The notes under the pieces: model-generated
Databases searched by the model: none
What the model saw: the letters and a program-made list of their open reading frames with translations, nothing else
Told to the model about the DNA's origin: nothing
Shown here: positions 26,401 through 63,988 of the stretch, piece after piece
How the letters are laid out: every line of letters begins with the position of its first letter
Position numbering within the stretch: the first letter of the stretch is position 1
Made by a program: the position numbers and the translations under genes
From: a virus
Length of the DNA stretch: 64,000 nucleotides
IMG/VR virus record: IMGVR_UViG_3300012663_001306
Location: 32,001-96,000 of that record
Strand: one strand, 5' to 3'

Positions 26401-29400
26401 ACTGACCGTCAACACCTCGACTTCCTGTAAATCCTGTAAATCCAGGACTACCTATAAATCCTTGGCTACCAACAAAACTTTGAGAGCCTGTAAATCCTTG
26501 ACTGCCACTAAATCCCCGACTACCAGCAAATCCAAATGATCCACTAAATCCAAATGATCCAGTGTAACTCTGTGAACCGGTGTATCCCTGACTGCCACTA
26601 AATCCTAGGCTTCCATTATAGCCTGTACTACCTTGGAAACCTTTACTACCAATATATCCTAAGCTACCAGTCCACCCTAAGCTACCAGTATATCCTACGC
26701 TACCAGAATAACCAAAGCTACCAGTGTAACTTTGTGAACCTGTATAGCCTATGCTACCAGTCCAACCTAAGCTACCGGTGTAACCAAATGATCCTGTGTA
26801 TCCTTGATCACCTCTGCTACCCCAATAACCTGTACTACCTGAAAATCCTATTAAACCTTGACTGCCAGCATAACCTAGACTACCGGCGTAACCTACAAAC
26901 TGTCCAACATCTTCAAATCCGTAATGATGTGTTGAATCTTCTAAAACGTTGTTAGTAAATACCCAAAGGTGTCCGTCACTACTATTGATATAGCCGTCGC
27001 CGAGCGCACCGCTATAACCAGGCGGCAAATATGTATAATTTGCAACACTACCTACAATCGTAACACTAGTACCTACATCGCCCTTTTCACCCTTACTACC
27101 AGTGAATCCAAATGATCCGGTATAGCTTTGAGATCCAGTAAAGCCAGCGCCTTGACTACCGGTGTATGCCATACTTCCCGTAAACCCTCGATCACCACCA
27201 AGGCCTTTGCTTCCTGTAAATCCTTGACTGCCAGTCCATCCAATAGGACCTCGACTGCCAGTAAATCCTATCGACCCAGCAAACCCTTTTCCTTGTGTTG
27301 AAGGAGCAACTTGCACATTTAGATTAAATGTGTTTGTAGCAGTTTGCGGAACACCATCAGTAATTGTAACTGTAAACGATAACGCACTAGACGTTAATAA
27401 TAATGCAGTACCAGACAATTCACCAGTTGCCGGATTAAAACTTAATCCCAATGGCAATGCAGTAGTTGATGTATTGATAGCGTATGTATACGGACTTGAC
27501 GGAGTTGTGTAACCACCGCTGGCTGCAACAGGTACAACAATCTGATATTGATTTTGTGTAAAATTAACTGGATTTGTAGGAACACTTGCTACCAATGGTG
27601 GTGGGCTAGTATTACCCACACTTAATGTAAAGGTTCCAGTGTTAACCTGAGCGGGAGTAGAAGTATCTGTTACTGTTACTGTGTAAAGTGTAGCAGATAG
27701 TGGGTCAGTCGGCGTACCACTCAACGCTCCTGAATACTGATCAAACGTTACACTTCTTGGTAGTGTAGGAGGGTTAAGAGTATATGTTAATACTCCGTAT
27801 CCGCCCGAGGCTAACACAGGAATAATTGGTGTTGCTATGTTAGCATATCTGGTCAATACTAATGTAGGATTTTGTACATTAATTACAATTGGCTTAGGTA
27901 ATACTGATAAACTAAATGATGTAGCAGATGTTTGAGGAACAACAGCACTATCACGAACCGTTACAGTGAATGTAGTGGGTGCAAGAGTTACAGTTGGTAC
28001 ACCGCTGATAACACCAGTAATTGTATCAAATCCTAAATTTGCAGGTAATGTGTTAGGTGCAATACTATAGGAAAGATCACCAGTTCCCCCGGAACCTAAT
28101 ACCGGAGTTACTGATGTGCTACTATCAACTACTAATACTATACTAGCACCTGCAGACAACACAGATCTAACGGCATCAGGAGTATTAATCTTTATACTAA
28201 ATGATGTACTTGTAGTTTGTGCTATACTGCCTGTATCTGTTATTGTAATTGTATAAACAGATGTATCAAAATTAACTATAGGGGTTCCGCTAATAGAACC
28301 AGTTGCATTGTTTAACGATAATCCAGTACCAGTCAACGCAGGTAAGATTGAATACGAATATGGACTTGCACCGCCAACAACAGTTACCGGAGTAAATGCA
28401 GTAGCTGGCTTATATTGAGTTAATGTATTAACTGCAATTACAGTTGTAGCAGTTAACGGTGGATCAGATACAGATAGTGTAAATGTCTGTGTGCTAAGTT
28501 GTCCTACGCTGTCCGATGCTGTAATTTTATATTGTTTTGGCAAACTAACAACAGTAGCAACTCCACTGATATTGCCGTTGGTTCTAGTAAATGTTAGCCC
28601 GCTTGGTAATGCAATATCTATACCAAATGTAATTGCGCCAAAGCCGCCACTTGCACTTACTGGGAATACATTAACAGTATCAACTAATCTAAGTATAGAA
28701 ACAGTAGGAACATCTAATGTAGTAGTTAACGGCGGCAATGGTGCTACGTATAAACTAAACTGACTAGATGTTGTATTATTTTGAGTATCTTTTACAGACA
28801 CTGTAAAAGTAGAAGTATTCAAAGAAACACTTGCAGTTCCGCTAATAGATCCAGTGCCTGTATTATATGTTAGTCCAGTTGGCAGATTAGGAACAACAGC
28901 ATAAGACAGTGGAATATATCCATTAGCGCCTACTACAGGAGTAAAGACATTTGTACTTACTCTTTGTGTTAGTGCTTTTAACGGAATAACAGTAGTTGCA
29001 CTAACAGGAGTTGCAGTGACTTCTAATGTGAATGTTGACGAAGTGATTTGTTTCGCCTGATCCGTTACAATAATTCTATAAGTTTGTATTAGCCCGTAAG
29101 TAGTAGGGCTACCGTTAATAATACCGTTATTAAATGTAATCCCTGCCGGCAATGTTGTCGGAGATATTGCATAACTTAATGTACCATAGCCGCCTGTTCC
29201 TTGTAGTACTGTGATAGGCGTAAACGGTGTATTTTGTCTTAGACTAATTGTACTCGTTGATTGAGTAAACCCAAGTGCAGGCGGTGCTTCAATTTCTAAG
29301 TCAAATGTTAATTGTTCAAATTGGTCTGGCTGGAATCCAAAACTACTTACGTTATCATAAACAGTTACAATAAATGTAGCGTTAGGAAAAGTAACACTAG

Positions 29401-32400
29401 GAGTTCCAGAAACTTGTCCAGTTTTAGCATCGTAAGTCAATCCGGCTGGTAACGGACTATCTAATGTAAATCTTAAAGGTGCAACGCCGCCGGCGGCAGT
29501 TACTGGTGTGAAACTAGCCGCCACATTCTGTATCAGTAACTGTGTTCCAACTATCTGTGTTAAAGAAACAGGATCCGGCGGTACAACTCCTAATCTAAAA
29601 GTACCAGTGCCCTGTTGTGGAGGTATAAACTGATCACTAACAGTAACCGTAAATGTAGCAGTTGTTAGAGTGCTAGTCGATACTCCGATTATTTGACCAG
29701 TACTTGTTGTGAATATTAAATCTTTCGGTAGCGTTGGACTGATATTATATGTTAGTGCTCCGATACCACCAGATGCCAAAATTGGTGTAAACGAAGTTGG
29801 GCGAACATATTGTCTTAATACCGTACTTGCATACAATGTACTTGTAGTAATAACAATTGGCGGAGGAGGAGGCTCTTGCTCAATAAACAATCTAAAGGTA
29901 CTAGTTGTCGCTGGCTGAGATACTGCATCAGTAACAGATACTGTAAATGTTGTAGTTGCCAAAGTTACAGTAGGAGTACCGTTGATCGCACCCGTAGCAC
30001 TATTATATGTCAACCCGTAAGGAGTAATACTTGGAGATACGCTGTAAACTAAAGGAGTAACACCGCCAGAGGCAGTAACTGGAATTACATTAGTCAATGT
30101 TCCAATTATTCTCACAGTTGACACAATTGGTCTAGATTGTACTAGACTAATAGCAGGGTATACTACCGATAAATTAAATGTTTGACTATTTGTTTGTCCA
30201 ATACTGTCAGTGATAATTACGGAATATGTTGCAGTGGCGCTTATTGCTGTTGGAGTACCAGTAATAACACCAGTCCCTGTATTATAAGTTAACCCTAACG
30301 AAGATACAGAAGGTACTATGTCATATGCTAAATTTCCATACCCTCCTGCACCAGTAACTGGTTTTGTATTTGCGGCCACCTGATAAATTAACTGAACTGA
30401 CGGTAGCGACGCAGAGATAGTTACTGCTGGAGGATTATTAATAGTTAGGTCAAATTGAGCACTTTGAGCACTAGTTGGACCTGTTTGATCAATTACACTA
30501 ACTGTGTAATTTGTTTTAGGAATAGACGCAATAGGAGTTCCGGTAATTGTTCCGGTGTTACTAAAACTTAAACCTGTTGTAGTAGTAAATGCAGTATCTA
30601 TACTAAAGATAAGTGTACCAAATCCACCAGTTGCTGTAACTGGACGGAATGCTGGATAAATTGATGTTGCTGGCACACCTCTTATTAAAGTATAGCTACT
30701 AGGTAATGCCGCTACAGCAACAATTGCACCAGCATTAATAGTTAATGTAAATGCTTTAGAACTAGTTTGTCTTGCATCGTCTGTGACAGTTACCGTATAT
30801 TGTCGAGATCCAATTATTGTTGGAGTTCCGGAAATTAATCCGTTAACAGCTGAAAACGTTAATCCAGTTTCAGCTCTTACATCAGGCGATATACTAAATG
30901 TTTTTATTCCGTATCCTGCTGATTTTATTGTAACAGGGGTAAAACTTGTTATTGCGGTATCTTTAGCAAATGAGTAACCAGTCTGTGATAAGTTAGTATC
31001 AAGCGCAGGTAACTCATTAATTGTTAATATAAAAGTAGACGAATTAGATTGTTGTACAGGATTGCTATCTCTAACTGTAATTGTATAAGTTGTTGCTGAA
31101 GAGGCAGCGTTTGGTGTTCCTGCGGTAACAAATCCAGTTGTTGAATTAAAAGATAATCCAGAGCCTAATGGAGGAAGTATACTATAAGTTAAACTACCAA
31201 CACCGCCTGATCCTACAACAGGTTGAAACGTTGTAAACGGAATAAGATTTATTAACGTCTTATTTGCATCTGCTGTTTGTGTTACAATAACCGCAGGAGG
31301 GTATACAGATAGGTCAAATACTGCCGGACCAGCAGATGACGGTGGGGTGTTACTATCTAATATGGTTAACGAATAAGTTGATGTATTAGAAATAACAGTT
31401 GGTGCACCACTAATAATACCAGTACTCGATGTAAAGATTAAACCGGCAGGTAAAACTTTATCAATGTAAAATGTCTTAACTCCAACTCCACCAGATGCTG
31501 ATACTGGAGCAAATGGTGTTACTGCACCAAATTGAGCAAGATCTCTCTTAGGAGTATCTACCTTAAATGTTAGTGGAACTGCATTAATTGTAAGATTAAA
31601 TGTTCCAGTAACAGTCTGTCCTGTTGAATCTGTAATTGTTACTGTAAACTGTGTTGTGGGCAAAGTTCCTGTTGGACCAGCGGTTGATGTTATTTGTCCA
31701 TTACTTGCATTGTAGGCTAGACCTGCAGGAATCGTAGCATTATTTGGTCCTGCAATAGTATACGTTAACGGAGCTTCGCCGCCGCCGCCAGCTGTAACAG
31801 TAACTGGGGTAACTGGCAGTCCGGTAGTTGAATTTTGTCCTAATGTAACTGATGCAGAATTAACAACTGATGTTAATGTTGCAGGTGCGTTAACAGTTAA
31901 CTGAAATGTTGCGGTTCCTGTTTGCCCCGATGCATTAGTTACTCTTACAGTATGTGTTACTGAAGATTGGGTAACTGTAGGAGTTCCGCTGATTGATCCA
32001 GTTGATGCATTAATTGTCAATCCAGCAGGAAGGGCCGCTGTTGTAGCTGTATCAATAGAATATGTATAAGTGGTATCGGCACCGCCTGAAGCTGTTACTG
32101 GAATAAAAGCAGTAGCTACTTTATTCCTTACCAGTGTCGGAATAATTGCTGCCGAACGGGCAACAACAAGCGGAGTTAATATTACTTCTAGATAAAAATC
32201 TGCAGATGCAGTCTGTGTTGCAGAATCGTTAACGGTTACTGTAAATTTTCCGTTAGTGAATACAACCGACGGAGTACCAGTAATTGCACCAGTTGTAGTG
32301 CTAAAAGATAAACCTGTCGGTAGTGTAGGGTTTGTACTAATACTGTATGTTAATGTTCCAAATCCCGCAGAACCAGTGACTGGACTAACAGGAATAAATG

Positions 32401-52382: not shown

Positions 52383-52411
52383 ATTATACAATATTTTGGA
52401 TCAAGTGTCAA
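52383..52411 (-). promoter_or_regulatory. Perfect sigma70 consensus promoter for the ligase-infA unit
   Basis: Minus strand TTGACA (52411-52406), 17-nt spacer, TATAAT (52388-52383). Confidence 0.85.
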
Positions 52412-53153
52412 GGCCGATTTTACCATTCTTCTTAAAGAATTTTTCTAAAATTATGCCCAAAACATCATATTTGTGGAACCGCGCATCACCGGGACGATCG
52501 TGGTGATTCTTATGCCATGCTTCGCCCCCAACAAATAAGTTAACCCAGACTCTATTACTTGGAATGTCTTTGGCCCAATCATGTGTCCATGTGTTAATAA
52601 ATCCTTCAAAGTGAAATACTATAGCAATTGGTGCCCAAAATAATGCAAGTGCTAAATTAAAAGGCAATAGGAATAGTGAGCCTACAAGGATAGGAACATA
52701 TATCCAATAGTAGTACTTGTGCCATACTGCATGATGTGTCTTAAACAGGGTTGCAACAGATCTTGGATCAATTTTACTAAATCCATATCCAAAAATTTGT
52801 ACATACCATACACCCATAATTTTAGGGCTATGTGGGTCTTTATCGTTACCTTGGAATCTATGATGCTGTCTGTGTACTGCCGCCCAACTCAATGCACTTC
52901 CTTGCATACTAAGGCCGGCAACAAACAATCCTATAAATTCTAACCAACGAGGTAGTTGTACTGCATTGTGACTAATTGACCTATGATAAGTCATGCTTAT
53001 TCCGATTATTGCAATTATATAATGCATTGCTAATGATAACAATAATAATTGCCATTGTAATGTTATTATTAGATATGCTAGAGCAATGTGTCCTAGTGCT
53101 ACCCACATATAGCCGTATACTCTACCGGCTGTTAATTCTTGAAATTGTTTCAT
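52401..53153 (-). CDS. Membrane fatty acid desaturase (delta-9/OLE1-like)
   Basis: His boxes HRSISH, HRQHH, HKNHH; hydrophobic segments. Confidence 0.9.
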   Translation of the reverse strand: MKQFQELTAGRVYGYMWVALGHIALAYLIITLQWQLLLLSLAMHYIIAIIGISMTYHRSISHNAVQLPRWLEFIGLFVAGLSMQGSALSWAAVHRQHHRFQGNDKDPHSPKIMGVWYVQIFGYGFSKIDPRSVATLFKTHHAVWHKYYYWIYVPILVGSLFLLPFNLALALFWAPIAIVFHFEGFINTWTHDWAKDIPSNRVWVNLFVGGEAWHKNHHDRPGDARFHKYDVLGIILEKFFKKNGKIGLDT

Positions 53154-53899
53154 TTTTTAATCAGTCGAATAATTAACGCAGGAATATCCCATTCCCACCA
53201 CTTCTCCCAATTGCTCCATGCATAAGGTTTAGCATGGTGATTGTTGTGCCAGCCTTCGCCCAAAGTAATTAAATTTGCAATCCAACTATTACGACTTTCG
53301 TCATGTTTCAGATCGTAAGTTTTATAGCCATGTCGATGAGCTATAACAATAATAGAACTACTACTGTGCAAGCACAAAGATGCAGGTAGTGCATATACAA
53401 AAATAACAAACCAAGGATTAATTAATGCTAGGAGCAAACAATACATTACAATGATAGCAAGATAGTTTTTATGCAACCAGCGTTGGAATGCATTTCTTCT
53501 AAAATCTCGAATAAGTTTGACTTCTAATTTTGTAGTATTCCAAAAGCCAAACCATGCTTTTAAGTTTCCTAACAAATAAGGGCTATGCGGATCACCATCC
53601 CGTTCACATGCTCGATGGTGTTGTCTATGAATTGTAACCCAGGCTAGCGGGCTTCCTACTGTTGTAATAACTCCAATTAAACTTAGTATTTTTTCTAATA
53701 TTGTAGATGTCTTAAAACTTCTATGACTTAGTAGTCTGTGATATCCTATGTTAATTCCAAGTACTCCAATAATCCAATATGTTATAAGAGATATTAACAA
53801 TAGATAGTACTGGCCAGTCATAAAAACCATAGCTATGCCCACTATAGATATAATATGATTCAAGATTTGGAGGCCGCGCACCGTTTGATTATGTGTCAT
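53150..53899 (-). CDS. Membrane fatty acid desaturase (delta-9/OLE1-like)
   Basis: HRLLSH, HRQHH, GEGWHNNHH; start moved to ATG 53899 (TAAGTA 5 nt upstream, avoids overlap with the divergent gene). Confidence 0.92.
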   Translation of the reverse strand: MTHNQTVRGLQILNHIISIVGIAMVFMTGQYYLLLISLITYWIIGVLGINIGYHRLLSHRSFKTSTILEKILSLIGVITTVGSPLAWVTIHRQHHRACERDGDPHSPYLLGNLKAWFGFWNTTKLEVKLIRDFRRNAFQRWLHKNYLAIIVMYCLLLALINPWFVIFVYALPASLCLHSSSSIIVIAHRHGYKTYDLKHDESRNSWIANLITLGEGWHNNHHAKPYAWSNWEKWWEWDIPALIIRLIKK

Positions 53900-53944
53900 A
53901 TCCATACTTATCCGTATAGTAAATAGGTGTCCATAAATATTGGT

Positions 53945-54475
53945 ATGATCAACCAGAAAGAGTTTATTGAAAATTTTATCAAACATAAAGATACAGTTAT
54001 CAACGAATACATTGCGTGTCCTAGAAAAAGTATTCCATTATACGGGTTTGATGGATCCGGTAAACCGTTAACAGAATGGCGTACTGTAACACTTTGGTGG
54101 GATAAAGAACCTTGGCGTATTTTTCAAAAGTATTTTCCCTTCACTACTGACCTAGTTAGAACTGGTCCCACTCACCAAGGAACTGGGTGGCTTATTTTAG
54201 AGCCCAACTCTCGCACACCCGAACATAATCATATAAGTTGGGGACATAAGATCATTGTTCATTTACCTACAGAAATTCCAGAAGGCGATACAGGATTTTG
54301 GGTAGAAGGCAAAGTTCATAGGTGGAAAATGGGGGAGTTATTTGCATTTGATGCAAATAAAGCTCATTACGGGTTTAATAATACAGGCAACCCGCGTTCT
54401 ATTTTTGTAATGGAATTTGACTACAACGAATGGATTGATACCCTGCGCCCGTATATGCTATTAGACAGAGAATGA
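53945..54475 (+). CDS. Aspartyl/asparaginyl beta-hydroxylase-like (LpxO-related) 2OG/Fe enzyme
   Basis: [28 protein letters not shown]; start ATG 53945, TAAATA 5 nt upstream. Confidence 0.78.
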
Positions 54476-54790
54476 ACTACCGCATCCGCAGGTTGTTTCG
54501 GCATTAGGATTTGTAATACTAAAATTACTACCCATTAAGTCTTCTTTGTAATCAATAATTGAGCCTTGCAGGTATTGAATACTCATACTATCTATTAAAA
54601 ATCTTACACTGTTTTTTTCAATCATAAAGTCATCTTCATTCTGGATTTCGTCAAATGTAAATCCGTATTGAAATCCACTGCATCCGCCGCCTTGAACAAA
54701 TACACGTAGCATTAGCAACGGGTTTGCCTCATCAATAATTAAATCTTTAACTTTATCAGCACACTTATCTGTAATTTCAAGTTGTTGCAT
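54461..54790 (-). CDS. erpA: Fe-S cluster insertion protein ErpA
   Basis: [37 protein letters not shown]. Confidence 0.9.
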
Positions 54791-55160
54791 GTTTTTTCCT
54801 ATAATCTTCTACTGCGGCTTTGATTGCGTCTTCTGCTAAAATACTGCAATGTATTTTAACTGGAGGTAATGCTAGTTCTTCTGCGATTTGGGAATTTTTA
54901 AGGTTAACAGCATCATTAATATGCATACCCTTAACCCACTCTGTAACCAACGACGAACTGGCGATTGCTGAACCACAGCCATATGTCTTGAAACGAGCAT
55001 CTCTAATAATACCATCTTCGTCTACCTTTATTTGTAATTTCATTACATCGCCACACGCAGGAGCGCCGACCATGCCGGTTCCAACTGTATCGTCAATTTC
55101 AAACTTACCTACATTTCTTGGGTTTTCGTAATGATCAATAACTTTATCTGAATATGCCAT
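54777..55160 (-). CDS. iscU: Fe-S cluster scaffold IscU
   Basis: [48 protein letters not shown]. Confidence 0.96.
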
Positions 55161-55191
55161 TGGGGGTTCCTATGAGTAATTAGTGCCAACA

Positions 55192-55213
55192 TGCTATTTA
55201 CACGTAAATAGCA
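55192..55213. promoter_or_regulatory. Palindromic back-to-back late promoters between iscU and iscA
   Basis: tgctatttac-ac-gtaaatagca: perfect 10-bp inverted repeat, each arm reading TAAATA outward. Confidence 0.7.
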
Positions 55214-55215
55214 GT

Positions 55216-55542
55216 ATGATAACTATTACCGAAACCGCTAGAAACAAAATACTTAAATTGCTGGCAAAAAGAGGAAAAGGAGTAGGAATCCGTCTGGGTG
55301 TAAAAACTACAGGATGCAGTGGGCTGGCATATACTTTAGAATATGTAGATGAATACACTATAGAAAACGGTATTACTAATTATGCACAACAGGATTTTGT
55401 AGTTTTAGTAGATGCAAAGTCTGATGCTTACTTAAAAGGCATGACAGTTGATTGGGCAAGAAACGGTCTTAATGAAGGATTTGAATTTAAGAATCCCAAT
55501 GAGAGAGATAAGTGCGGGTGTGGAGAATCTTTTAGAGTTTAA
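55216..55542 (+). CDS. iscA: Fe-S cluster assembly protein IscA
   Basis: RGKGVGIRLGVKTTGCSGLAY..GLNEGFEFKNPNERDKCGCGESF; start moved to ATG 55216. Confidence 0.93.
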   Translation: MITITETARNKILKLLAKRGKGVGIRLGVKTTGCSGLAYTLEYVDEYTIENGITNYAQQDFVVLVDAKSDAYLKGMTVDWARNGLNEGFEFKNPNERDKCGCGESFRV

Positions 55543-56009
55543 TCAAATTCTTCTAAAGAAAATGTAATACTTGCCCGTGGACTATCCGGTATAGCACAAT
55601 GTAATAATCCTGGAAGGATATATAACATTTGATTTTCTTGTAATACAAATTTAGAATCTTCAACTTGCCATAACGTATCGCCTATTATTTGCCATACCCA
55701 TAAATGTTGTCCAGGATCTTTATGTAAATCAAATGTTTTACTAGTTGGTGTTGTTCCTGCATATAGTCCTGCTCTAGCATAATAATTTGGTAACAATGGT
55801 TGTAGAAAATCCAGTACATCTTTACAATACGGATCTTGATCTAATCCACCTAACGTAAATCCACCTTCTCCAAAATTTCTATAATACAGTTTGTTTATGC
55901 TTGTTTGATGTTTGACCAAAGAATGTATTTTATCCCATGTCCATTTGTTAGAATCTAACGTGTGGTCTACAACTCCCCAACGGACATTGAAAGATGTAGT
56001 ATCAATCAT
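55539..56009 (-). CDS. Minimal JmjC/ROX-like cupin oxygenase
   Basis: FDLHKD..WQIIG..W..L..MLYILPGLLHCA (HxD..H triad). Confidence 0.75.
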   Translation of the reverse strand: MIDTTSFNVRWGVVDHTLDSNKWTWDKIHSLVKHQTSINKLYYRNFGEGGFTLGGLDQDPYCKDVLDFLQPLLPNYYARAGLYAGTTPTSKTFDLHKDPGQHLWVWQIIGDTLWQVEDSKFVLQENQMLYILPGLLHCAIPDSPRASITFSLEEFD

Positions 56010-56758
56010 AACTCTTCTTCAACTCGATCCCAAAATAATATTCTAGCTTTAATAGCTTCAACAGCAGTCTGCTCTGCTTCTACTATTTTAGTAGGGCTGT
56101 AATCGCACAGTTCGTTAATTAAGTTCAGTGCGGCCGGCCCATGTTCTTCTCCGTCAACTTCTATATGCCTATCTAAATAATATAAAAATCTGTTAGCGTT
56201 CAATGAATTAATATCAAGCTGATTTACGAGTCTTCTAAACATTTGCGGAATAACAGTTTCTCGGCCGTAAGTAAAGGCGGCGGCAATTTCATGTGCTTTG
56301 CCGCGTCTAATGATAGTAAAGGTAGAATTCATAAATTCTTTGCTAGGTGCAGGAATATATATGTTATCTAATGCCCAATCTAATCCGTTAGTTTCTACTG
56401 AGCTTAGGAAATTGGTTATAGGTGCAACATTTGCTCCAATTTCTAACATAGCCTGGCAGTAAAGATCAAAATGGGATAAGTGATTACCGTTAAACGGATC
56501 AACATCACTTTCTTCTGCTAAAATAATTTCGTTGATCAACCTACTGGATGTACGCTGTATCCTAGTAGGAATCCAAAGGTCACCGCTTGGGCATATTCTA
56601 TGTTGTAGTGCTTTAGCAAGACTCATAAAATCCCATACAGCATACACATGATGTTCCATGAATATCCGTAGATCTTCAATTGATTGAATTGTGTTGGTTA
56701 CCAGTAAAGAATGATTCTCTAACAGTACCCTATGTTGTTCAATTATTGACTGGCGCAT
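56006..56758 (-). CDS. DUF3050 family heme-oxygenase-like (putative di-iron) protein
   Basis: FMEHHVYAVWDFMSL, LINEIILAEESD, SHFDLY..AM, GRETVIP, YLDRHIEVDGEEHGP. Confidence 0.85.
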   Translation of the reverse strand: MRQSIIEQHRVLLENHSLLVTNTIQSIEDLRIFMEHHVYAVWDFMSLAKALQHRICPSGDLWIPTRIQRTSSRLINEIILAEESDVDPFNGNHLSHFDLYCQAMLEIGANVAPITNFLSSVETNGLDWALDNIYIPAPSKEFMNSTFTIIRRGKAHEIAAAFTYGRETVIPQMFRRLVNQLDINSLNANRFLYYLDRHIEVDGEEHGPAALNLINELCDYSPTKIVEAEQTAVEAIKARILFWDRVEEEL

Positions 56759-58067
56759 TTATAGATTCTATCCCCATTTCTAGCAACTCTACTTCTTGTC
56801 CAAATAATAATTCAAAGGCTTTGTGCTGTATGGCGCCGTTCCATACTTTTTCTACTCTACAGTTTTGTAGGAACACGTTATCTGGGAATGTTATAGGACA
56901 ACTAGACTTGCACAGTCTACGTACACTACAATCAGAACAATGAGTTTTCTTTCTGTTAAGATCTAATTGTATAATGCGGATGCCTTTTAAGTTATCAATT
57001 TTACCTGCAATAAATTTTTCGCTTGTATGCGGACACAGTCTTACATTTCCTTGGACATCAACTGATAGCACATCTTCGGCATCTGCTCCACACCCTGTTG
57101 TCATTGTTACAGGTACTTGATGTTTAAGTGTGGCAGCATAGTCAAGAACTCCGCCCTTGCCATCAAATATATTTGTTTCTAAGAACTCTCGATTTTTATT
57201 TCTTCCGTGAGTCTTTAGTTGTTTAATGCACTCGTCAATATAGCTATTCATTGTATGTTTGAAGTTTGCTAGGTCTTCTCCAGATATAACATGATCAGCA
57301 CTATTTTGTGAATTAGTCTCGTCATAAATTCTAGCCATTGTATAACTTAATTTGACATTTTTAAGATTGAGTTTTTCTGCAACATCTCTAAAATATTTGT
57401 TAATGCCAAACATATCATAGTTGGTTAAACTTATAACAGTATTAAAGCTAAACTGTACATGAGGATACATGGTGTCTAATCGTTGCAATGTTTTAGCCAC
57501 ACTAGACTTATCAAATATGTCTTCGCCACGTAAAGATTCTTGTCCAGGACCGTCGTGGCTTATTCCCATAGTAATTTTTGATTCTAGCGTCTCAAAAAAG
57601 TCAGCATGTTTATCTCTTAGTGGACTACCATTAGTAGATATATAGAAATGACGTCCTGCTTTATCTAAGTGTTTCATAACTGGCATTATGTCATTCCAAT
57701 ATAGGAACGGTTCTCCGCCCCAAAGCTCTATGCGTTCTAAGTTTTCAAGGTCAAGATAAGTATCGATTGATTTAATAAATGCATCCAGATTGGTGTTCTT
57801 TTTTTGCTCTTCTGGATTACCAATGTCTTTCTGCATACAGTAAGAGCAACTATAGTTACAGGCCTGCCCAAACAAAATACGAATAGCTGTTGGCTTATTA
57901 CTTTTCTTTCTAGAGCCATGCACTTTGCTAGCTTCTTCATAGAAAGAAATATCTTTCTCCGGAGGAAGCGTTAATGGTTCGCCTAGTTCGTTGTATATGG
58001 CATTATTATTAATTTCATAATAGATAATGCTGTTTGATTGTTTTAATCTAAATTTGGAATAGCTCAT
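56739..58067 (-). CDS. Radical SAM/SPASM domain protein
   Basis: CNYSCSYC, LWGGEP, STNG, ISHDG; SPASM cysteines GCG..C..CSDC..C..C..C. Confidence 0.93.
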   Translation of the reverse strand: MSYSKFRLKQSNSIIYYEINNNAIYNELGEPLTLPPEKDISFYEEASKVHGSRKKSNKPTAIRILFGQACNYSCSYCMQKDIGNPEEQKKNTNLDAFIKSIDTYLDLENLERIELWGGEPFLYWNDIMPVMKHLDKAGRHFYISTNGSPLRDKHADFFETLESKITMGISHDGPGQESLRGEDIFDKSSVAKTLQRLDTMYPHVQFSFNTVISLTNYDMFGINKYFRDVAEKLNLKNVKLSYTMARIYDETNSQNSADHVISGEDLANFKHTMNSYIDECIKQLKTHGRNKNREFLETNIFDGKGGVLDYAATLKHQVPVTMTTGCGADAEDVLSVDVQGNVRLCPHTSEKFIAGKIDNLKGIRIIQLDLNRKKTHCSDCSVRRLCKSSCPITFPDNVFLQNCRVEKVWNGAIQHKAFELLFGQEVELLEMGIESINAPVNN

Positions 58068-59122
58068 ATTTTACTTATTATTGGTATAACCTGGTCTGTT
58101 TTTAACATTCCAAATTTTGTCATTGTCCACCCTAGCTCTTGAAGTTTATAAAAAAATCTCGACTTGTTAGTATACATGTAGTATGGTATAAAAGTAAAGT
58201 TTTTATTAACGGTGTATTCTAAGGTTGTTTTGTAGTATTCTCTAAACTTTGGATTGATAACTCTATTTTTCCAACTATCGTAATGGTATTGTTTGCTCGT
58301 AAGCATATCAGTCATAAAGCTAGAATGATCAAACCCGTTAGTAATTAAATGAAACGGATCAATAGTTAAATTACTAGCATCGTCGCTTGAAAAATAAAAT
58401 CTATCGTTATATAGATGTATAGACTCCCTATAAATTTGCATCAATCCGCTATTGTCGTTTACAACCCACGTATTTTGATATTCGGCATAGTCTTGTTCTA
58501 ATATTTCTCTGTTGTTTGTTCTAAAATCGTGATGCACACAATTATGTAATCTATGCTTTTTAGTAAATTCAATTAACTCTTTGAAGATAGTAGGATTACC
58601 GCAGTCTATATATTTGATTTTTTGTATTCCGTACTTATCGTATAGTTTACCTAATGTATCAAGTACTTTATCAACACCCACTTGTTCTAAAAATTCTGTG
58701 CTTATAGAGATATCGCCCAGGGTTTTTATCTTAATATCTAAGTCAAGTATTCGGAAGATTGCGTTATCAGTAATACATACTTCAAACAGGTGTCCGTGGG
58801 TTTGATACCATTTGTAGTGGTTAGGAAAATTATATTTTAGATAATACAAGTCATCATTTGTCCTAACAGATCCAAAGTAATCAAATATTTCAAACCACGT
58901 AGATTGCAAACTAAAATCATCTGTAAAAATTTCATTTACTAAATCTTTAGTTTTAGCCAAATTGTCTTTTATGTAACATACTTTACAACCTGCGCCACAA
59001 TAGTATCTTTTACCTAAACTAAAATACAAGTCGTGATCAAGAGAACGAAGGCAATCTTCCTTAATCCAATAGTCAGCTAAACTATCGTAGCCGTCAAAAT
59101 TATCTCTGTTTGTATTTTGCAT
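58064..59122 (-). CDS. Divergent radical SAM-like protein without SPASM
   Basis: YYCGAGCKVCY (CxxxCxxC), ITDN, ISIS; no GGEP and no C-terminal Cys cluster; start ATG 59122 (TAAATA 6 nt upstream). Confidence 0.65.
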   Translation of the reverse strand: MQNTNRDNFDGYDSLADYWIKEDCLRSLDHDLYFSLGKRYYCGAGCKVCYIKDNLAKTKDLVNEIFTDDFSLQSTWFEIFDYFGSVRTNDDLYYLKYNFPNHYKWYQTHGHLFEVCITDNAIFRILDLDIKIKTLGDISISTEFLEQVGVDKVLDTLGKLYDKYGIQKIKYIDCGNPTIFKELIEFTKKHRLHNCVHHDFRTNNREILEQDYAEYQNTWVVNDNSGLMQIYRESIHLYNDRFYFSSDDASNLTIDPFHLITNGFDHSSFMTDMLTSKQYHYDSWKNRVINPKFREYYKTTLEYTVNKNFTFIPYYMYTNKSRFFYKLQELGWTMTKFGMLKTDQVIPIISKI

Positions 59123-59137
59123 AATCAATATTTACAA

Positions 59138-60256
59138 TTAAGAAATAATCTTAAAGTCTTCTTGGATTCCTACCCATTCTAAGATATTTTGTTTTTGATT
59201 TAGCTTTGATACATGCATTATAACAAAGTCCATATATGTATAAAACTCCTTGCATTTTGTACCTGGCTGTTCGTTGAACATATGATACAAATACTTTAAT
59301 CCGCAACTAGGACGCTTTTTACAGTTCATACAACTATCGTATATTCTTCCAGCATCGCCTTGATTTTTCCAAATTTGCTTGTTTCGCCAATCACCTATAC
59401 GAGCATCAACAGTTTTGTATTCTAGAAAATCGAACTCGGGATAAATGAATCCATCTGGTGAGAGTATTAATTTGTTATGCTCTGAAAAGTATGCTTTATC
59501 AACCATAGTATAACATCCGTCAATATATACAGATATCTTTTTAACATAGAGTATCTGAATAAATTGCAAAAAGGCATCTAAAAATTGTACTAAATCTAAC
59601 TTATCAATTATAACGTCAAACTTATCTTTACCTCTTCGATGCCTTAACGGAATAATATTAATAGATCGGCATCTAGTTTTATAACAGGTACTAACAATAT
59701 CTTTTATGTTGTCTAATGAAAAAGAGTTTGGTTGATCAATGGGTAACACGCATTGCCATTGCCACTTAATTTTATTTCTATTAAGTACTGTTGACATTTC
59801 TACAACATCAAACGATTTTCTATTAGTAGCTTGATGCATAAAATCGTAACTGACTGTTACATATAATACATCTGCGTATTGATCAAAGAAGTCTTCAGTC
59901 TCTTTAACTAATGAGCCGTTTGTAGTTACAGTCAATTGCCAGTTGTTCTTTTTTAAGATAGGATATAACCATAACATTATTTCCTTCATTCGAGTTATAA
60001 AGAGCAAAGGCTCGCCGCCGTGAAATGATACACGTTCTACTTCATTTGGTTGAAGGGCAACCCATTCTATAAACTCTTTGATATCTTGAGAAGTATCTCG
60101 AGTTAAGTTTTGCCCTCCTAGATTTGTAATATAGTCTCTATCGCAATATGTACAATCAAAATTACATGTGTTACCTAAGTAGATAACAACCATCTTTATT
60201 TTATCTAGTGGTTGAATGGGTATGAGATTTATTTTTTGATTCAATAAGTCGTTCAC
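59138..60256 (-). CDS. Radical SAM protein with degenerate SPASM domain
   Basis: CNFDCTYC, FHGGEP, TTNG, VSYD; C-terminal CMNC..C..C, with IYPE in place of IYPC; start uncertain (GTG 60256 or ATG 60193). Confidence 0.88.
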   Translation of the reverse strand: MNDLLNQKINLIPIQPLDKIKMVVIYLGNTCNFDCTYCDRDYITNLGGQNLTRDTSQDIKEFIEWVALQPNEVERVSFHGGEPLLFITRMKEIMLWLYPILKKNNWQLTVTTNGSLVKETEDFFDQYADVLYVTVSYDFMHQATNRKSFDVVEMSTVLNRNKIKWQWQCVLPIDQPNSFSLDNIKDIVSTCYKTRCRSINIIPLRHRRGKDKFDVIIDKLDLVQFLDAFLQFIQILYVKKISVYIDGCYTMVDKAYFSEHNKLILSPDGFIYPEFDFLEYKTVDARIGDWRNKQIWKNQGDAGRIYDSCMNCKKRPSCGLKYLYHMFNEQPGTKCKEFYTYMDFVIMHVSKLNQKQNILEWVGIQEDFKIIS

Positions 60257-61961
60257 TAAATGTACCTTGATAAGTTTTATGCATGGATTGTAAAAATATC
60301 ATATGCAGTAGGCAAAGATAGAATGCACGTTGATACAAGTTTTCAGCTTTTATCTTATTATCAATTGGAGCAAGATTTCCTTTTTTAACAACATAATAGT
60401 AAAAGTCATCAACTTCTTCTGTATCGCTAGTAATCAGAGCTTTGAGTTCTTCTACAAAATTATCCTTGCTGAAGTTAGGAGTAATCTCATCATTGATAAT
60501 CTTTTTCCATACGGCAAGCAATGTTCTATAATCTGCAATCTCGTCCATATTAACATGAACTTTATCTATTAGCGGATGGAAATTAAATGTGTAGTAGAAC
60601 ATCAAATATACCAAACCTTTAACATAGGGATGATTCTCTTCGCTAGATTCTACTGCGCTACAAATGCTTTCGTATTTTTTCTTAAATTGTTTTTTAGCAA
60701 TATCTTCCTGCAAGTCTAGATATAGCTTCACAATCTTTTGGCACATGTCGTCTGGGCGAAACATTCTAGATCCGGTATCTAAGTTTCCAGCAGGGCATTG
60801 ATAACATGCGTTCTTCAAATCACATGTTTTGCATTGTTCCTCTTCTTCAAACATTTTAGAATATTCTACTTGGAAGTACTTGTACCTGTCTATATAAAGA
60901 TTATCTTGGAATAGATTACCTAGTATAGTTTCCGAAGTTGCGCCAGCCTTTTGGTTAGTAAAGAAGTAGCATCCGCTCCAGTCTCCGCTTGCATCGATGG
61001 CAATCATGTCAGATCCTATCATGCAGTTTTCTTCACCTTTCTGTCCAACACCTTCTGAAAAATGTATTTGGAAATCTGCATATTTGTCTAACACTGCTAA
61101 AATATCTCTATGTAGGTTATTCCATTCGCTATCGGACCAGCGGATGAAGCCTTTGCTAGAGTCCAGGATCAGCGGATGTACTACCATCCTTCTAATGCCC
61201 CTAGTATACAAATGATCAACGAACTCTGTAAAATACGGAGCATTTTCTCTTGCTAGAGTGCATCTAATAATAATACGCTTTTGTTGCTTAGGACCATCGG
61301 GCATATAACTAATGAAGTCCATAATTTTATTAATCTTGTCTTGCCCAATTTCTCTATGATCAACTTCGCTTCTATCTGTATCAAGCGATAATAAGATATA
61401 CGTGAAATCATAGTTTAGAAATTCGTCTAATAATTCTTTAGTAAACAATAACCCGTTAGTAACCATACCAACAACAGTGTTAACATCACCACGGCTATTT
61501 TCTTCTAGCTCTTTTTCATTTTTTCTTACAAAGTCTAAGATAATATCTTTATGAATTAACGGCTCTCCGCCAAAGAAATTAAAGACTTTCTTTTGTCTTT
61601 GATTTGCGTTAACTAAGAATCTATATGCTTGAAGTAAACTTTCGTTAGTAAATCTTCCAAAATCTTTATTATGCTGTTCGTAGCAGTATGAGCAGGATAG
61701 ATTGCAAGCGTTGGTTAAAATTAAATTTAGTTGCTTAAGGTCTTGGAACAAATAGTTAGCTGATGAAATAGATACAACTGTTTCATCTACTTTAGGTACT
61801 ACTGAAATTAGTTTATTTGCTTTTTCTAATCCTTTGGGTGTAATAATATTCTTAGTTTCAAATCGTAGCGAACCGTCTTCAGATGTAGTCACCGAAGCCT
61901 TATGATCTTCCAATCTTTTCTTTTGAGTTTCGTTCTTAATCCAAATTACACTATTGGTCAT
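60201..61961 (-). CDS. Radical SAM/SPASM peptide-maturase-like protein with C-terminal helical extension
   Basis: CNLSCSYC, FFGGEP, VTNG, SLD; NCMIG..GCYFF..CKTC..C..CPAG..C; ATGA-coupled to the peptide gene. Confidence 0.93.
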   Translation of the reverse strand: MTNSVIWIKNETQKKRLEDHKASVTTSEDGSLRFETKNIITPKGLEKANKLISVVPKVDETVVSISSANYLFQDLKQLNLILTNACNLSCSYCYEQHNKDFGRFTNESLLQAYRFLVNANQRQKKVFNFFGGEPLIHKDIILDFVRKNEKELEENSRGDVNTVVGMVTNGLLFTKELLDEFLNYDFTYILLSLDTDRSEVDHREIGQDKINKIMDFISYMPDGPKQQKRIIIRCTLARENAPYFTEFVDHLYTRGIRRMVVHPLILDSSKGFIRWSDSEWNNLHRDILAVLDKYADFQIHFSEGVGQKGEENCMIGSDMIAIDASGDWSGCYFFTNQKAGATSETILGNLFQDNLYIDRYKYFQVEYSKMFEEEEQCKTCDLKNACYQCPAGNLDTGSRMFRPDDMCQKIVKLYLDLQEDIAKKQFKKKYESICSAVESSEENHPYVKGLVYLMFYYTFNFHPLIDKVHVNMDEIADYRTLLAVWKKIINDEITPNFSKDNFVEELKALITSDTEEVDDFYYYVVKKGNLAPIDNKIKAENLYQRAFYLCLLHMIFLQSMHKTYQGTFSERLIESKNKSHTHSTTR

Positions 61962-62173
61962 ACAGTTCCACGGTTACAGTTACATTGACATTGACAGTCA
62001 CATACTGTGGTATAATCATCATAAAATATATGATTATGCGTGGCAAGGTTGTTCAAAATTGTTAACATAGTTTGATAATTTTGTTGACCAATGATGGTTG
62101 TATTTGCAACAGCATCAGCCGGTGGTTGGACACCATCGGCCCAGTCGTTTACGTTTTCAGTATTTTCTGCCAT
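61958..62173 (-). CDS. Cys-rich small protein, putative radical SAM substrate (RiPP-like precursor) ending CDCQCQCNCNRGTV
   Basis: 71 aa; AAGGAG SD; acidic N-terminus; CxCxCxCxC tail; stop overlaps the rSAM start. Confidence 0.8.
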   Translation of the reverse strand: MAENTENVNDWADGVQPPADAVANTTIIGQQNYQTMLTILNNLATHNHIFYDDYTTVCDCQCQCNCNRGTV

Positions 62174-62184
62174 ATATTTGCTCC

Positions 62185-63111
62185 TTAAATTTTATGTACT
62201 ACATATTCTCTGTAGAATCTATTGGTCTTATTTAATGCTACATCCATTGCTGTAGCAGTGTTCCATCTTAGATATAGATAACCAACAGAATTATCAACTG
62301 TTATTTCAAACTGATTGTTATTTCTAGTAACTGGAAAGTTTGTAGTACATTTGACTTTGGCGTTGTCAAATAAATCAGTATCAGATAAATGCAGTCTTAT
62401 AAACCAATTATCAAAGTTTGAAACTGTAAACTTGTCTCCAGTTACTAACAATTGATTTCCTACTATTTTTACATTTTTAGAAAATCTAGGCTGAAATAAT
62501 GTTTCGTTAAGATTATTACCATGATTGTCTATAGAATGTACAAAGGTGTTATCGTCTATTCGTCCACTTAGATTTGCAGATTCTTGTATGGCATAATGAT
62601 TTAATACAATGTAATAGATGTCTGCATCATTAGTTTTATAAACTAAAAACCAGGGAATGACATCAAAATTTTCAGATATAGTTTCATTGTTTCGATGATC
62701 TAACATTAATCCGTTATCTAGTCTACTAAAATATCGAGTACCTTCTATAGCACTTTTTTGATCTGTTGCGTCAGCTAACGGAGCTCCAAATAATAAAATC
62801 TTACACTGAGGACGCCTGTCCTTAATTTTTTCGTATTCATCTACTATATCTTGTAAATTGATAGATATAGATGGTAACAGATCGGCTGTGGTATAAGGCC
62901 TAGTTAAACATATATCAGATTCAACTCCTGCCGACAGCACAAATCTAGTATCTACGTTTCTAAAAAAAGATATTCTTGCAGTTCGGTATGCATCGGTATT
63001 CAGACTAGAAAAGTACCCTAGGCCTGGTTCTGGATTTAGATTATATGTGCTCTCCGCGTCATCCCACATACTTGAAAATCCTTGCCCGGTTTGGAAAAAA
63101 AATGCTCTCAA
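62185..63111 (-). CDS. Hypothetical protein
   Basis: 308-aa ORF, TTG start, tightly packed in the operon. Confidence 0.7.
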   Translation of the reverse strand: MRAFFFQTGQGFSSMWDDAESTYNLNPEPGLGYFSSLNTDAYRTARISFFRNVDTRFVLSAGVESDICLTRPYTTADLLPSISINLQDIVDEYEKIKDRRPQCKILLFGAPLADATDQKSAIEGTRYFSRLDNGLMLDHRNNETISENFDVIPWFLVYKTNDADIYYIVLNHYAIQESANLSGRIDDNTFVHSIDNHGNNLNETLFQPRFSKNVKIVGNQLLVTGDKFTVSNFDNWFIRLHLSDTDLFDNAKVKCTTNFPVTRNNNQFEITVDNSVGYLYLRWNTATAMDVALNKTNRFYREYVVHKI

Positions 63112-63120
63112 TTTGTTTCC

Positions 63121-63576
63121 TTACGCCGATGTTCGATCAACGATACCGTGTCTATGATATCTTAGAGTTTTAATCCTAGTGTTCATTGCATTGTAGTCGC
63201 TTGCTCTAATAACTCCAGCTTGCTTAAAATCACCACCGGTCGCTGGGCCTGCGCCGGTGAGTGTATCGCCGGTTTGAACTCCGTATGCGTAACCTGTATT
63301 TCTGCCACCAGGAGTATAGTAATTATTTCGGTCTCCTGCACTTGGGTTATCACCGTACCCTGCACCATATGTAGCTAATTGATATGCATCGGTATATTGG
63401 TGGTAGTGCCCAGCCATTGAAGTAATTAGACCTTTTATAGCATTTATATCTGAATAATAAATTACTTTACCGGCACCTACGTTCCCCTGTAAGGTAGGAA
63501 TTTGAGATTGGTATGCAAGATTTCCTAAAGGATGAATTATGCTATACGCGGCACGGGGTACTTGTCCTGTTGGCAT
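63121..63576 (-). CDS. Hypothetical, probably virion-associated protein with two helix+HxH motifs
   Basis: 151 aa; VIxxSDxNA..HYH..D and ..HRH..D repeats. Confidence 0.7.
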   Translation of the reverse strand: MPTGQVPRAAYSIIHPLGNLAYQSQIPTLQGNVGAGKVIYYSDINAIKGLITSMAGHYHQYTDAYQLATYGAGYGDNPSAGDRNNYYTPGGRNTGYAYGVQTGDTLTGAGPATGGDFKQAGVIRASDYNAMNTRIKTLRYHRHGIVDRTSA

Positions 63577-63577
63577 T

Positions 63578-63988
63578 TTAGTTCTCCACTATAAGTGTTT
63601 CAGTATATACTGTACTGGTACTAATTGACGGTGATAATACATAAACTACCTCTCCGTCAACATCAAAATTGTCAAATAATAAATTTACAACATTTTCATC
63701 GTAAAATGATTGTATTTCAGCTACATCAGTAGACTGAAGTATGTGTCCAAAATTAGTTAATAAGGAATCTTTTACTGATTGATCAATTGCGGTGTCTGCT
63801 AGAAAATCTGGAAAGATAATTTTGAGATCTGGGGATATAATTCTAATATTACTAGGAACATCGTCATTGCCCGTGAATCCTAAATGTTCTACTAAATCTT
63901 TTATTTCGTCTGTAATAACTTTAACAATTCGTTGACCTTCTACCGGAGTATCAGTAATGTTAACCAACGGAAATTCTTTACGCTTCAT
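63578..63988 (-). CDS. Hypothetical acidic protein
   Basis: 136-aa ORF abutting the next gene, GGAG SD for the downstream gene in its 3' end. Confidence 0.7.
   Translation of the reverse strand: MKRKEFPLVNITDTPVEGQRIVKVITDEIKDLVEHLGFTGNDDVPSNIRIISPDLKIIFPDFLADTAIDQSVKDSLLTNFGHILQSTDVAEIQSFYDENVVNLLFDNFDVDGEVVYVLSPSISTSTVYTETLIVEN

Follow-up and report, generated by a model that had tools for sequence, protein, structure and literature searches.

What does a large phage do with a small cysteine-rich peptide encoded directly ahead of a row of radical S-adenosylmethionine (rSAM) enzymes? The question is raised by a stretch of 64,000 nucleotides, hereafter the window, which comprises bases 32001-96000 of the 114-kb IMG/VR virus record IMGVR_UViG_3300012663_001306; CheckV rates this record as about 32% complete, which implies a jumbo phage. 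The element under study is a gene module near the end of the window, whose smallest product is a 71-residue mini-protein carrying a ladder of alternating cysteines. A preliminary description made from the sequence alone had seen in this module a phage peptide or protein maturation pathway, a proposal supported here, since the peptide proves to accompany homologous rSAM clusters in related genomes. We favor, with a probability of roughly 0.55, the reading that the module makes a fiber-tip mini-protein that is crosslinked by rSAM enzymes, probably through thioethers, and that is not a secreted antibiotic.

A ladder mini-protein within a conserved seven-gene core

The genes of the conserved core are the following (window coordinates):

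61958-62173, minus strand: ladder mini-protein, 71 aa, ending TTVCDCQCQCNCNRGTV
60201-61961, minus strand: rSAM-A, 586 aa, radical SAM/SPASM, PapB/SCIFF-maturase-like, translationally coupled to the peptide
59138-60256, minus strand: rSAM-B, Radical_SAM 46.9 bits, with a C-terminal 4-Cys twitch-like region
58064-59128, minus strand: fourth, divergent rSAM by predicted fold and CxxxCxxC, 354 aa, phrog_36229
56739-58067, minus strand: rSAM-C, 442 aa, radical SAM/SPASM, Radical_SAM 43.7 bits
63121-63576, minus strand: double-HxH protein (p151), 151 aa, two helix-HxHxxxD modules, no Cys
62185-63111, minus strand: p308, 308 aa, novel N-domain and Ig-like C-domain

The peptide gene is preceded by the Shine-Dalgarno sequence AAGGAG, 8 nt upstream, and its TGA stop overlaps the start of rSAM-A as ATGA. 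From the peptide through rSAM-A and rSAM-B to the fourth rSAM gene, the junctions are a 4-nt overlap, a 56-nt overlap and a 9-nt gap; from there through rSAM-C and a DUF3050 gene to a cupin gene, they are overlaps of 4, 20 and 4 nt. The open reading frame (ORF) listing and Pfam thus agree with the earlier account of an ATGA-coupled peptide and rSAM gene followed on the same strand by three more CxxxCxxC proteins and a DUF3050 protein. All genes listed in that account are present, and it had overlooked two members of the core, the double-HxH paralogue and the protein of about 300 aa. Throughout the 114-kb record, the four CxxxCxxC proteins are the only ones of at least 150 aa, the HxHxxxD proteins of the module are likewise the only ones, and the peptide carries the sole Cys ladder among ORFs longer than 45 aa. 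A 45-aa ORF has a short CxCxC. On the minus strand, one TAAATA box immediately precedes the fourth rSAM start (59129-59134), and another is found 55 nt upstream of the peptide ATG (62229-62234).

The region has no megablast match among phage sequences. When 50,697 phage records were searched by tblastn, rSAM-A was found only in the Ralstonia jumbo phages RP12 and RP31, at 41.5% identity. RP12 encodes ORF074, a two-HxH protein, then an unannotated 65-aa ORF ending NCNCNCACTRGSL, then ORF075-080. This peptide orthologue fills the annotation gap between ORF074 and ORF075 (NC_041911.1 82888-83085; 6889-7086 of locus L001), and its RP31 counterpart lies at about 79.6 kb. The RP12 and RP31 genes have been listed only as rSAM protein, Fe-S oxidoreductase, MoaA and MgoB (PMC5468394).

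Scanning IMG/VR yielded 52 loci whose rSAM-A is 41-75% identical, the longest contig being 379 kb. The peptide is present in 50 of them, and in the two others the sequence is truncated on the flank that should contain it; together with RP12 and RP31, these loci answer in the affirmative the question, set beforehand as a refutation test, of whether the peptide is conserved beside homologous rSAM clusters. The core was defined by all-against-all clustering of neighborhood ORFs, which recovered the rSAM genes in 53 loci, the HxH proteins (the ladder peptide and its two-module paralogue, which form one BLAST cluster) in 51, the protein of about 300 aa in 50, and the fourth rSAM in 45, the rest being truncated. 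DUF3050 is found in 27. The conserved core is therefore made up of seven genes: the ladder peptide, the double-HxH paralogue of 125-155 aa, the protein of about 300 aa, and four rSAM genes. The preliminary description had seen no protease, exporter or immunity gene in the window; across about 50 neighborhoods, none is conserved either.

The search of bacterial genomes recovered three near relatives only, on two contigs of metagenome-assembled genomes and on a 253-kb scaffold of Ewingella americana E4 (NZ_RCZD01000008.1). The latter, an isolate assembly, has the whole module with an IS605 OrfB gene nearby, and its flanks encode hypothetical proteins throughout. The flank gave no phage match by blastn, and a search for phrog_358 was negative. 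The scaffold may represent a resident jumbo phage and may offer a culturable system.

The 71-aa peptide consists of a variable N-terminus, an amphipathic helix, the sequence HNH-IFYD (an HxHxxxD module), DY-TTV, the ladder CDCQCQCNC and the tail NRGTV. Its ladder motif is kept in 76 unique homologous peptides from related loci and metagenome proteins. The family starts with a short conserved M-x-x-E-N-T/L-S followed by about 20 variable residues, continues with the amphipathic helix A-x-T-F-x-Q-M-L-x-V/I-L-x-x-L, H-x-H, [FY][FY]-D-D-Y and three residues, and ends with the ladder and x-R-G-[TSI]-[LVI]. There is no variation in H-x-H, D and R-G, and very little in FYDDY. Ladders have 2-6 Cys (5 in 56 of the 76 peptides), and their 284 spacer positions are occupied by Q (115), N (66), A (42), E (37) and D (24), and by nothing else. 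No cleavage motif is visible in the family alignment, and both peptide ends are too conserved for a bacteriocin made of a leader and a hypervariable core. The helix-HxH region could serve as a leader, yet it is also a paralogous structural module. The 71-aa peptide has no NCBIfam or Pfam match.

That the peptide is a chance or mis-called ORF is contradicted by its 76 conserved homologues and by its being the only ladder above 45 aa in the record, and a 136-aa ORF at 63578-63988 was dropped as a module member, having no homologues in related loci.

Cysteine ladders on tail fibers beside related rSAM genes

The strongest pointer to the fate of the product comes from phages with a single rSAM gene. 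A tblastn search with rSAM-C retrieved rSAM/SPASM genes of 27-28% identity in the Achromobacter siphovirus JWF and in Ralstonia phage RSP15. Reciprocally, JWF gp030 scores 129 bits against rSAM-C, 50 against rSAM-B and 35 against rSAM-A; judged by sequence, rSAM-C is the nearest counterpart of the lone rSAM in the tail-fiber modules of JWF and RSP15. The JWF genes are ordered central tail fiber J, gp027, gp028, gp029, gp030 (the rSAM), terminator and endolysin. JWF gp028 is a tail fiber with a T4 gp36-like region and a Hint domain, and reads ...KPRQ-NCNCDCNCNCS-CFPAGT..., where position 1 of the Pfam Hint profile falls on Cys308, the catalytic Cys of the domain, directly after the ladder. In RSP15, the 'side tail fiber' ORF048, three genes before the rSAM, ends ...NTNCQCGN.

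By profile scan, at least 591 IMG/VR stretches contain an rSAM of the JWF type. For a ladder census, we kept 80 loci from that scan and four others; in 66 of them the sequence extends at least 2.5 kb upstream. Of these 66 loci, 60 have a ladder-bearing ORF on the same strand that ends 0.7-3.3 kb upstream of the rSAM gene, with the ladder at its C-terminus in 49 and followed by a CFP-type Hint domain in 11, as compared with 6 of 1933 control ORFs. These ladder proteins are 92-686 aa long, and 9 of the 10 that were scanned match tail-fiber PHROG families (best E 7e-105). Their ladders take the form (N-C)n: 59 of 62 have an Asn ahead of the first Cys, and N (131), D (32) and A (29) serve as spacers. 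The variants with Hint are in keeping with a need for the ladder to be terminal in the mature chain. Because Cys ladders end true tail fibers beside the nearest rSAM relatives, the earlier suggestion that the product may stay in the cell or virion receives strong indirect support.

The jumbo-phage module itself sits amid fiber genes in three different genomic backgrounds. One contains tail-fiber and L-shaped-fiber-assembly-like genes and a giant phrog_358 protein; another has paralogous virion-structural-like genes beside a clamp loader and MazG; and the third is that of RP12, with the YomR-like 'virion structural' ORF72/73. The window encodes collagen-like tail-fiber genes and giant ORFs of up to 5483 aa; an endolysin-like gene, further giant ORFs and the gene of a virion structural protein (phrog_5838, E 2e-248) follow just past its end. 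The 5483-aa protein is a single ORF (17495-33946, minus strand) among the tail-fiber genes. At the same time, searches of the peptide, p151 and p308 against PHROG returned no tail-family matches.

The four radical SAM enzymes

Three of the four rSAM enzymes named in the preliminary description are recognized by Pfam, and the fourth by its modeled fold and an invariant CxxxCxxC. rSAM-A matches Radical_SAM (PF04055) with 68.5 bits (cutoff 29.5) and, marginally, SPASM (PF13186) with 21.6 bits (cutoff 21.5), and shares 7 invariant Cys with its RP12 counterpart. It scores 125.8 bits against PapB (NF047865), under the equivalog cutoff of 340, and is thus related to this family and not a member of it; its score for the SCIFF maturase (TIGR03974) is 79.3 bits, under the cutoff of 425. 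The QhpD-type family TIGR03906, with 65.5 bits, is also among the NCBIfam matches to SPASM enzymes. rSAM-C reaches 28.9 bits for SPASM (TIGR04085, cutoff 27), and for both rSAM-A and rSAM-C the best scores go to thioether-forming maturases (PapB, SCIFF, QhpD-type). The auxiliary region of rSAM-B consists of a 4-Cys tail only, with NF033640 at 49 bits against a cutoff of 170.

The fourth CxxxCxxC protein has no Pfam or NCBIfam match. The three Cys of its motif are invariant in an alignment of 26 homologues, and its AlphaFold model (pLDDT 93.7) is closest to MoaA (Z 10.6, rmsd 4.9, 247 aligned residues), SuiB (Z 10.5) and ChlB (Z 10.2). The top 29 structure matches of this protein (VIA) are all rSAM enzymes, viperin and SkfB included; Foldseek against the PDB gave weak matches only, with E about 1e-2. 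The model indicates a radical SAM fold for this protein, and on this basis the count of four rSAM enzymes holds.

The helix-HxH paralogue and the p308 protein

The double-HxH protein p151 is a paralogue of the N-terminal half of the peptide, and BLASTP places both in one cluster. Across the two-module family, which includes RP12 ORF074, the residues H57, H59, D63, G71, H141, H143 and D147 are invariant. A profile search of 1.84 billion cluster representatives gave 281 members at E<=1e-3, mostly of 120-140 aa; in the longer ones the C-terminal part is variable and may be a Hint, Gly_rich_2, beta-propeller or lectin-like domain. Receptor-binding proteins typically combine a constant N-terminal adaptor with a distal domain that can be exchanged, and these sequences appear to do the same.

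A hidden Markov model of the helix-HxH module counts three modules, neither more nor fewer, in 47 of 53 loci, and in each of these they are divided 2+1. No locus exceeds three; those with fewer are truncated or have a divergent second copy. The partition varies: Ewingella divides the modules into 1 (85 aa) and 2 (122 aa, bearing the ladder), and in the distant locus L061 one 207-aa chain combines three modules with a 15-Cys ladder. That the total stays constant while its partition changes suggests a single unit formed by the three modules. Elsewhere, a 543-kb IMG/VR contig (L058, 12952-14213) encodes a 288-aa protein with the fiber-repeat motif NPHKVT and, at its end, a helix-HKHSVTD module; the next gene specifies a 127-aa helix-HTH protein whose Cys-rich tail is irregular, and rSAM genes are nearby.

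The model of p308 (pLDDT 82.8) has an Ig-like C-domain with generic matches at Z about 6, and its N-domain has no convincing fold match in structure searches. The model superposes on RP12 ORF075 (TM 0.75, E 4.7e-18), which confirms their orthology despite 17-24% identity. By hhalign, the p308 profile is unrelated to JWF gp029 and RSP15 ORF047. Profiles of the peptide, p151, p308 and the fourth rSAM found nothing meaningful among PDB sequences, the one match being a His-tag artefact.

Accessory and neighboring genes

Next to the core lie the following genes (window coordinates):

56006-56758, minus strand: DUF3050, heme-oxygenase-like, putative di-iron oxidoreductase, optional accessory
55539-56009, minus strand: small cupin-like protein, 156 aa, lineage-specific
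54461-54790, minus strand: ErpA
54777-55160, minus strand: IscU
55183-55542, plus strand: IscA

Both DUF3050 and a JmjC-type cupin had been placed in the pathway. The DUF3050 assignment is unambiguous (PF11251, 278.7 bits over the full length against a cutoff of 22.2), even though the gene occurs in only about half of the related loci; the family belongs to the heme-oxygenase-like clan (PMC4520260). The JmjC identity of the cupin is not established, as its match to JmjC_2 (PF08007) lies below the Pfam threshold (19.2 bits, cutoff 22, 33 residues aligned) and its PHROG matches are to families of unknown function. Nor is it conserved: a homologue occurs in 1 of 58 loci, far from the module there, and we rejected the cupin as a module part.

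Phage-encoded ErpA, IscU and IscA likely supply clusters to the rSAM enzymes, and the presence of this adjacent kit is in line with a high cluster demand. In L012 and L047 the trio recurs (about 17100-18800, 66-86% identity), some 2 kb away from the module, and IscU is found in L025. The window further encodes DNA ligase, IF-1 and two fatty-acid desaturases. The desaturases and a 182-aa cupin (52401-54475) recur near the module in L008, L019, L021 and L024, sometimes between the double-HxH gene and the gene for the protein of about 300 aa. About ten related loci add a 670-aa B12-binding radical SAM protein that is class B methyltransferase-like (L036 2902-4920; also L034, L027 and L030), and about ten others have a class-III aminotransferase gene on the opposite strand.

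A possible mechanism and its known parallels

We propose that the ladder mini-protein is the substrate of the module, and that the two SPASM enzymes would link its ladder Cys to side-chain carbons of the adjacent Asn, Asp, Gln or Glu, a step inferred from the ranthipeptide maturases PapB and CteB and from QhpD and NxxcB. The resulting ranthipeptide-type thioethers would give a rigid, redox-proof knot. More tentatively, rSAM-B and the divergent fourth rSAM would add other modifications, possibly on FYDDY, and DUF3050, where encoded, would supply an oxidative step. The phage IscU, IscA and ErpA would load the Fe-S clusters, and no leader would be removed. The single helix-HxH module of the peptide would then join the two of p151 in a three-module, pseudo-trimeric unit, which may bind metal like the HxH sites of T4 gp37 and gp12 and P2 gpV, and the Ig-like protein of about 300 aa would be a further partner.

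A broader scheme, which we consider somewhat short of an even bet, is that many phages finish their tail fibers enzymatically: an rSAM/SPASM enzyme would crosslink a C-terminal (Asn/Asp/Gln/Glu-Cys)n tip, exposed in some fibers by Hint, and jumbo phages would have expanded this scheme to seven genes, with the ladder on a separate mini-subunit, which would supply the last of three HxH modules to a unit whose other two belong to an adaptor with exchangeable receptor-binding domains.

Each part of this scheme has a relative among known systems. Like the ranthipeptides (PapA/PapB for freyrasin, CteA/CteB for SCIFF), the module pairs a Cys-rich ribosomal peptide with an adjacent rSAM/SPASM maturase and interleaves acceptor-type Asp/Glu with Cys. 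Unlike them, it has CxC in place of CxxxD, scores far below the two family cutoffs, four rSAM enzymes, and no detected recognition element or conserved protease or exporter, and it is viral, set among tail-fiber genes, with a helix-HxH paralogue as partner. NxxcB forms a Cys-to-Asn beta-thioether in NxxcA, a streptococcal quorum-regulated peptide. Compared by description only, NxxcA resembles the (N-C)n ladders of the JWF type in pairing Asn with Cys, whereas its spacing is NxxC and that of the ladders NC/CN, and NxxcA is not a virion protein. In the QhpC/QhpD system, an rSAM/SPASM enzyme puts several Cys-to-Asp/Glu thioethers into a small protein, the gamma subunit of quinohemoprotein amine dehydrogenase, which is kept as a subunit of a larger complex and not secreted as an antibiotic; in contrast to the present module, QhpC bears a quinone cofactor and needs a protease, an exporter and a flavoprotein, none of which is conserved here.

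On the structural side, HxH metal sites are present in the trimeric phage fibers and spikes T4 gp37, T4 gp12 and P2 gpV. Shared with these are the position of HxH after a helical or coiled segment, the number of three modules and the fiber gene context, whereas here the modules are split over two chains (2+1), have no sequence similarity to PDB chains, and bind metal only putatively. Self-cleaving fiber C-domains, which act as intramolecular chaperones, provide a further parallel, as Hint follows a functional fiber end in the 11 JWF-type loci mentioned above (11/60) and in some double-HxH proteins, and its cleavage would expose the ladder as a new C-terminus. They differ in that Hint works by an N-to-S acyl shift and the chaperones by a serine-lysine protease, and in that the peptide of the window has no Hint domain. 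The enzymology is thus of a known kind; what is new is its proposed use on phage fiber tips, the putative helix-HxH three-module partner system, and the composition with four rSAM enzymes. In the literature searched, we found no description of a ladder/rSAM fiber system, and published genome papers annotate the module genes piecemeal (e.g. PMC5468394).

Weighing the alternatives

Several observations weigh against the reading of the product as a crosslinked fiber tip. With all family scores far under the equivalog cutoffs, the reaction type is not assignable by homology. The acceptors used by PapB and QhpD are Asp and Glu; to our knowledge, Asn serves as an acceptor only with NxxcB, and we know of no documented case for Gln. 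No RiPP recognition element (RiPP, ribosomally synthesized and post-translationally modified peptide) was detected, with no PqqD domain at E<=0.1 in any protein, and four rSAM enzymes seem many for one conserved region of 45 residues. The three-module idea is without fold support, the ESM Atlas monomer model of p151 being poor (pLDDT 0.42), and JWF-type fibers have no HxH module, so that ladder and HxH need not act together. Finally, mass spectrometry of RP31 virions, in which 32 proteins were identified from gel bands, does not list ORF68-76; this survey was of low depth, its search database did not contain the peptide ORF, and the 'virion structural' neighbors ORF68/69 were likewise undetected.

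The product could instead be a non-structural RiPP, a soluble effector acting inside the cell or released from it (as an anti-defense factor, a host-takeover inhibitor, a bacteriocin-like weapon against competitors, or a signal), with the link to fibers reflecting late co-expression. We regard this as unlikely. It would account for the combination of a Cys-rich peptide and SPASM enzymes as in ranthipeptides and SCIFF, for the encoding of the peptide as a small stand-alone ORF with a strong Shine-Dalgarno sequence, and for the silence of the RP31 virion data on the neighboring proteins. However, it leaves unaccounted for the identical ladders on true tail fibers of 300-700 aa beside the nearest rSAM relatives and the modular, receptor-binding-protein-like build of the partner proteins, and it fits poorly with a peptide that is conserved at both ends without an evident cleavage motif and with about 50 loci that share no protease, exporter or immunity gene.

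Two further explanations assign the conserved residues other roles. If the Cys ladder and HxH were ligands of a metal- or Fe-S-binding tip, similar to metallothionein or to the rows of Fe-binding HxH in T4 gp37, the task of the rSAM enzymes would be one other than Cys crosslinking, such as epimerization of residues, C-C crosslinking on FYDDY, or insertion of sulfur or metal. The alternation that places every Cys on one face of a strand, the invariance of HxHxxxD in all three modules and the adjacent Fe-S assembly kit speak for such a tip. We nevertheless hold it to be improbable, because the lone JWF-type rSAM/SPASM is tied to ladders without HxH or FYDDY, which makes the ladder the common denominator, and because the spacers are confined to known or plausible thioether acceptors. 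The chances appear slimmer still for a peptide-derived cofactor of the PQQ, mycofactocin or QhpC/CTQ kind, in which the Tyr/Asp stretch would be crosslinked and oxidized to a redox cofactor by the rSAM enzymes together with DUF3050 or the cupin. PqqE-, MftC- and QhpD-type enzymes are SPASM rSAMs (the QhpD-type match has 65 bits), DUF3050 is of the heme-oxygenase-like clan, and FYDDY is nearly invariant; yet half of the loci lack DUF3050 and nearly all lack the cupin, neither a peptidase nor a downstream redox enzyme is conserved, and the JWF-type systems have the ladder and no FYDDY.

Implications

If the broader scheme holds, it would be the first case of rSAM-dependent post-translational maturation of a virion structural protein, and would define a new class of 'structural RiPPs'. 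Should the fiber-tip reading be correct, a new kind of virion maturation would stand alongside the autocatalytic crosslinks of the HK97 type. It would also explain why large phages carry rSAM clusters, annotated as 'MoaA', 'arylsulfatase regulator' or 'antibiotic synthesis', together with Fe-S genes of their own. With 591 or more IMG/VR stretches, 76 unique peptides from jumbo phages and 62 unique fiber ladders, enzymologists who study RiPPs would gain a large and untouched set of substrates, and cultured phages with such systems are at hand in JWF, Achromobacter phage 2-1, RSP15, RP12 and RP31. Beyond its roles in bacterial antibiotics and cofactors, radical SAM peptide chemistry would then be used by viruses to build the organelle with which they recognize their hosts.

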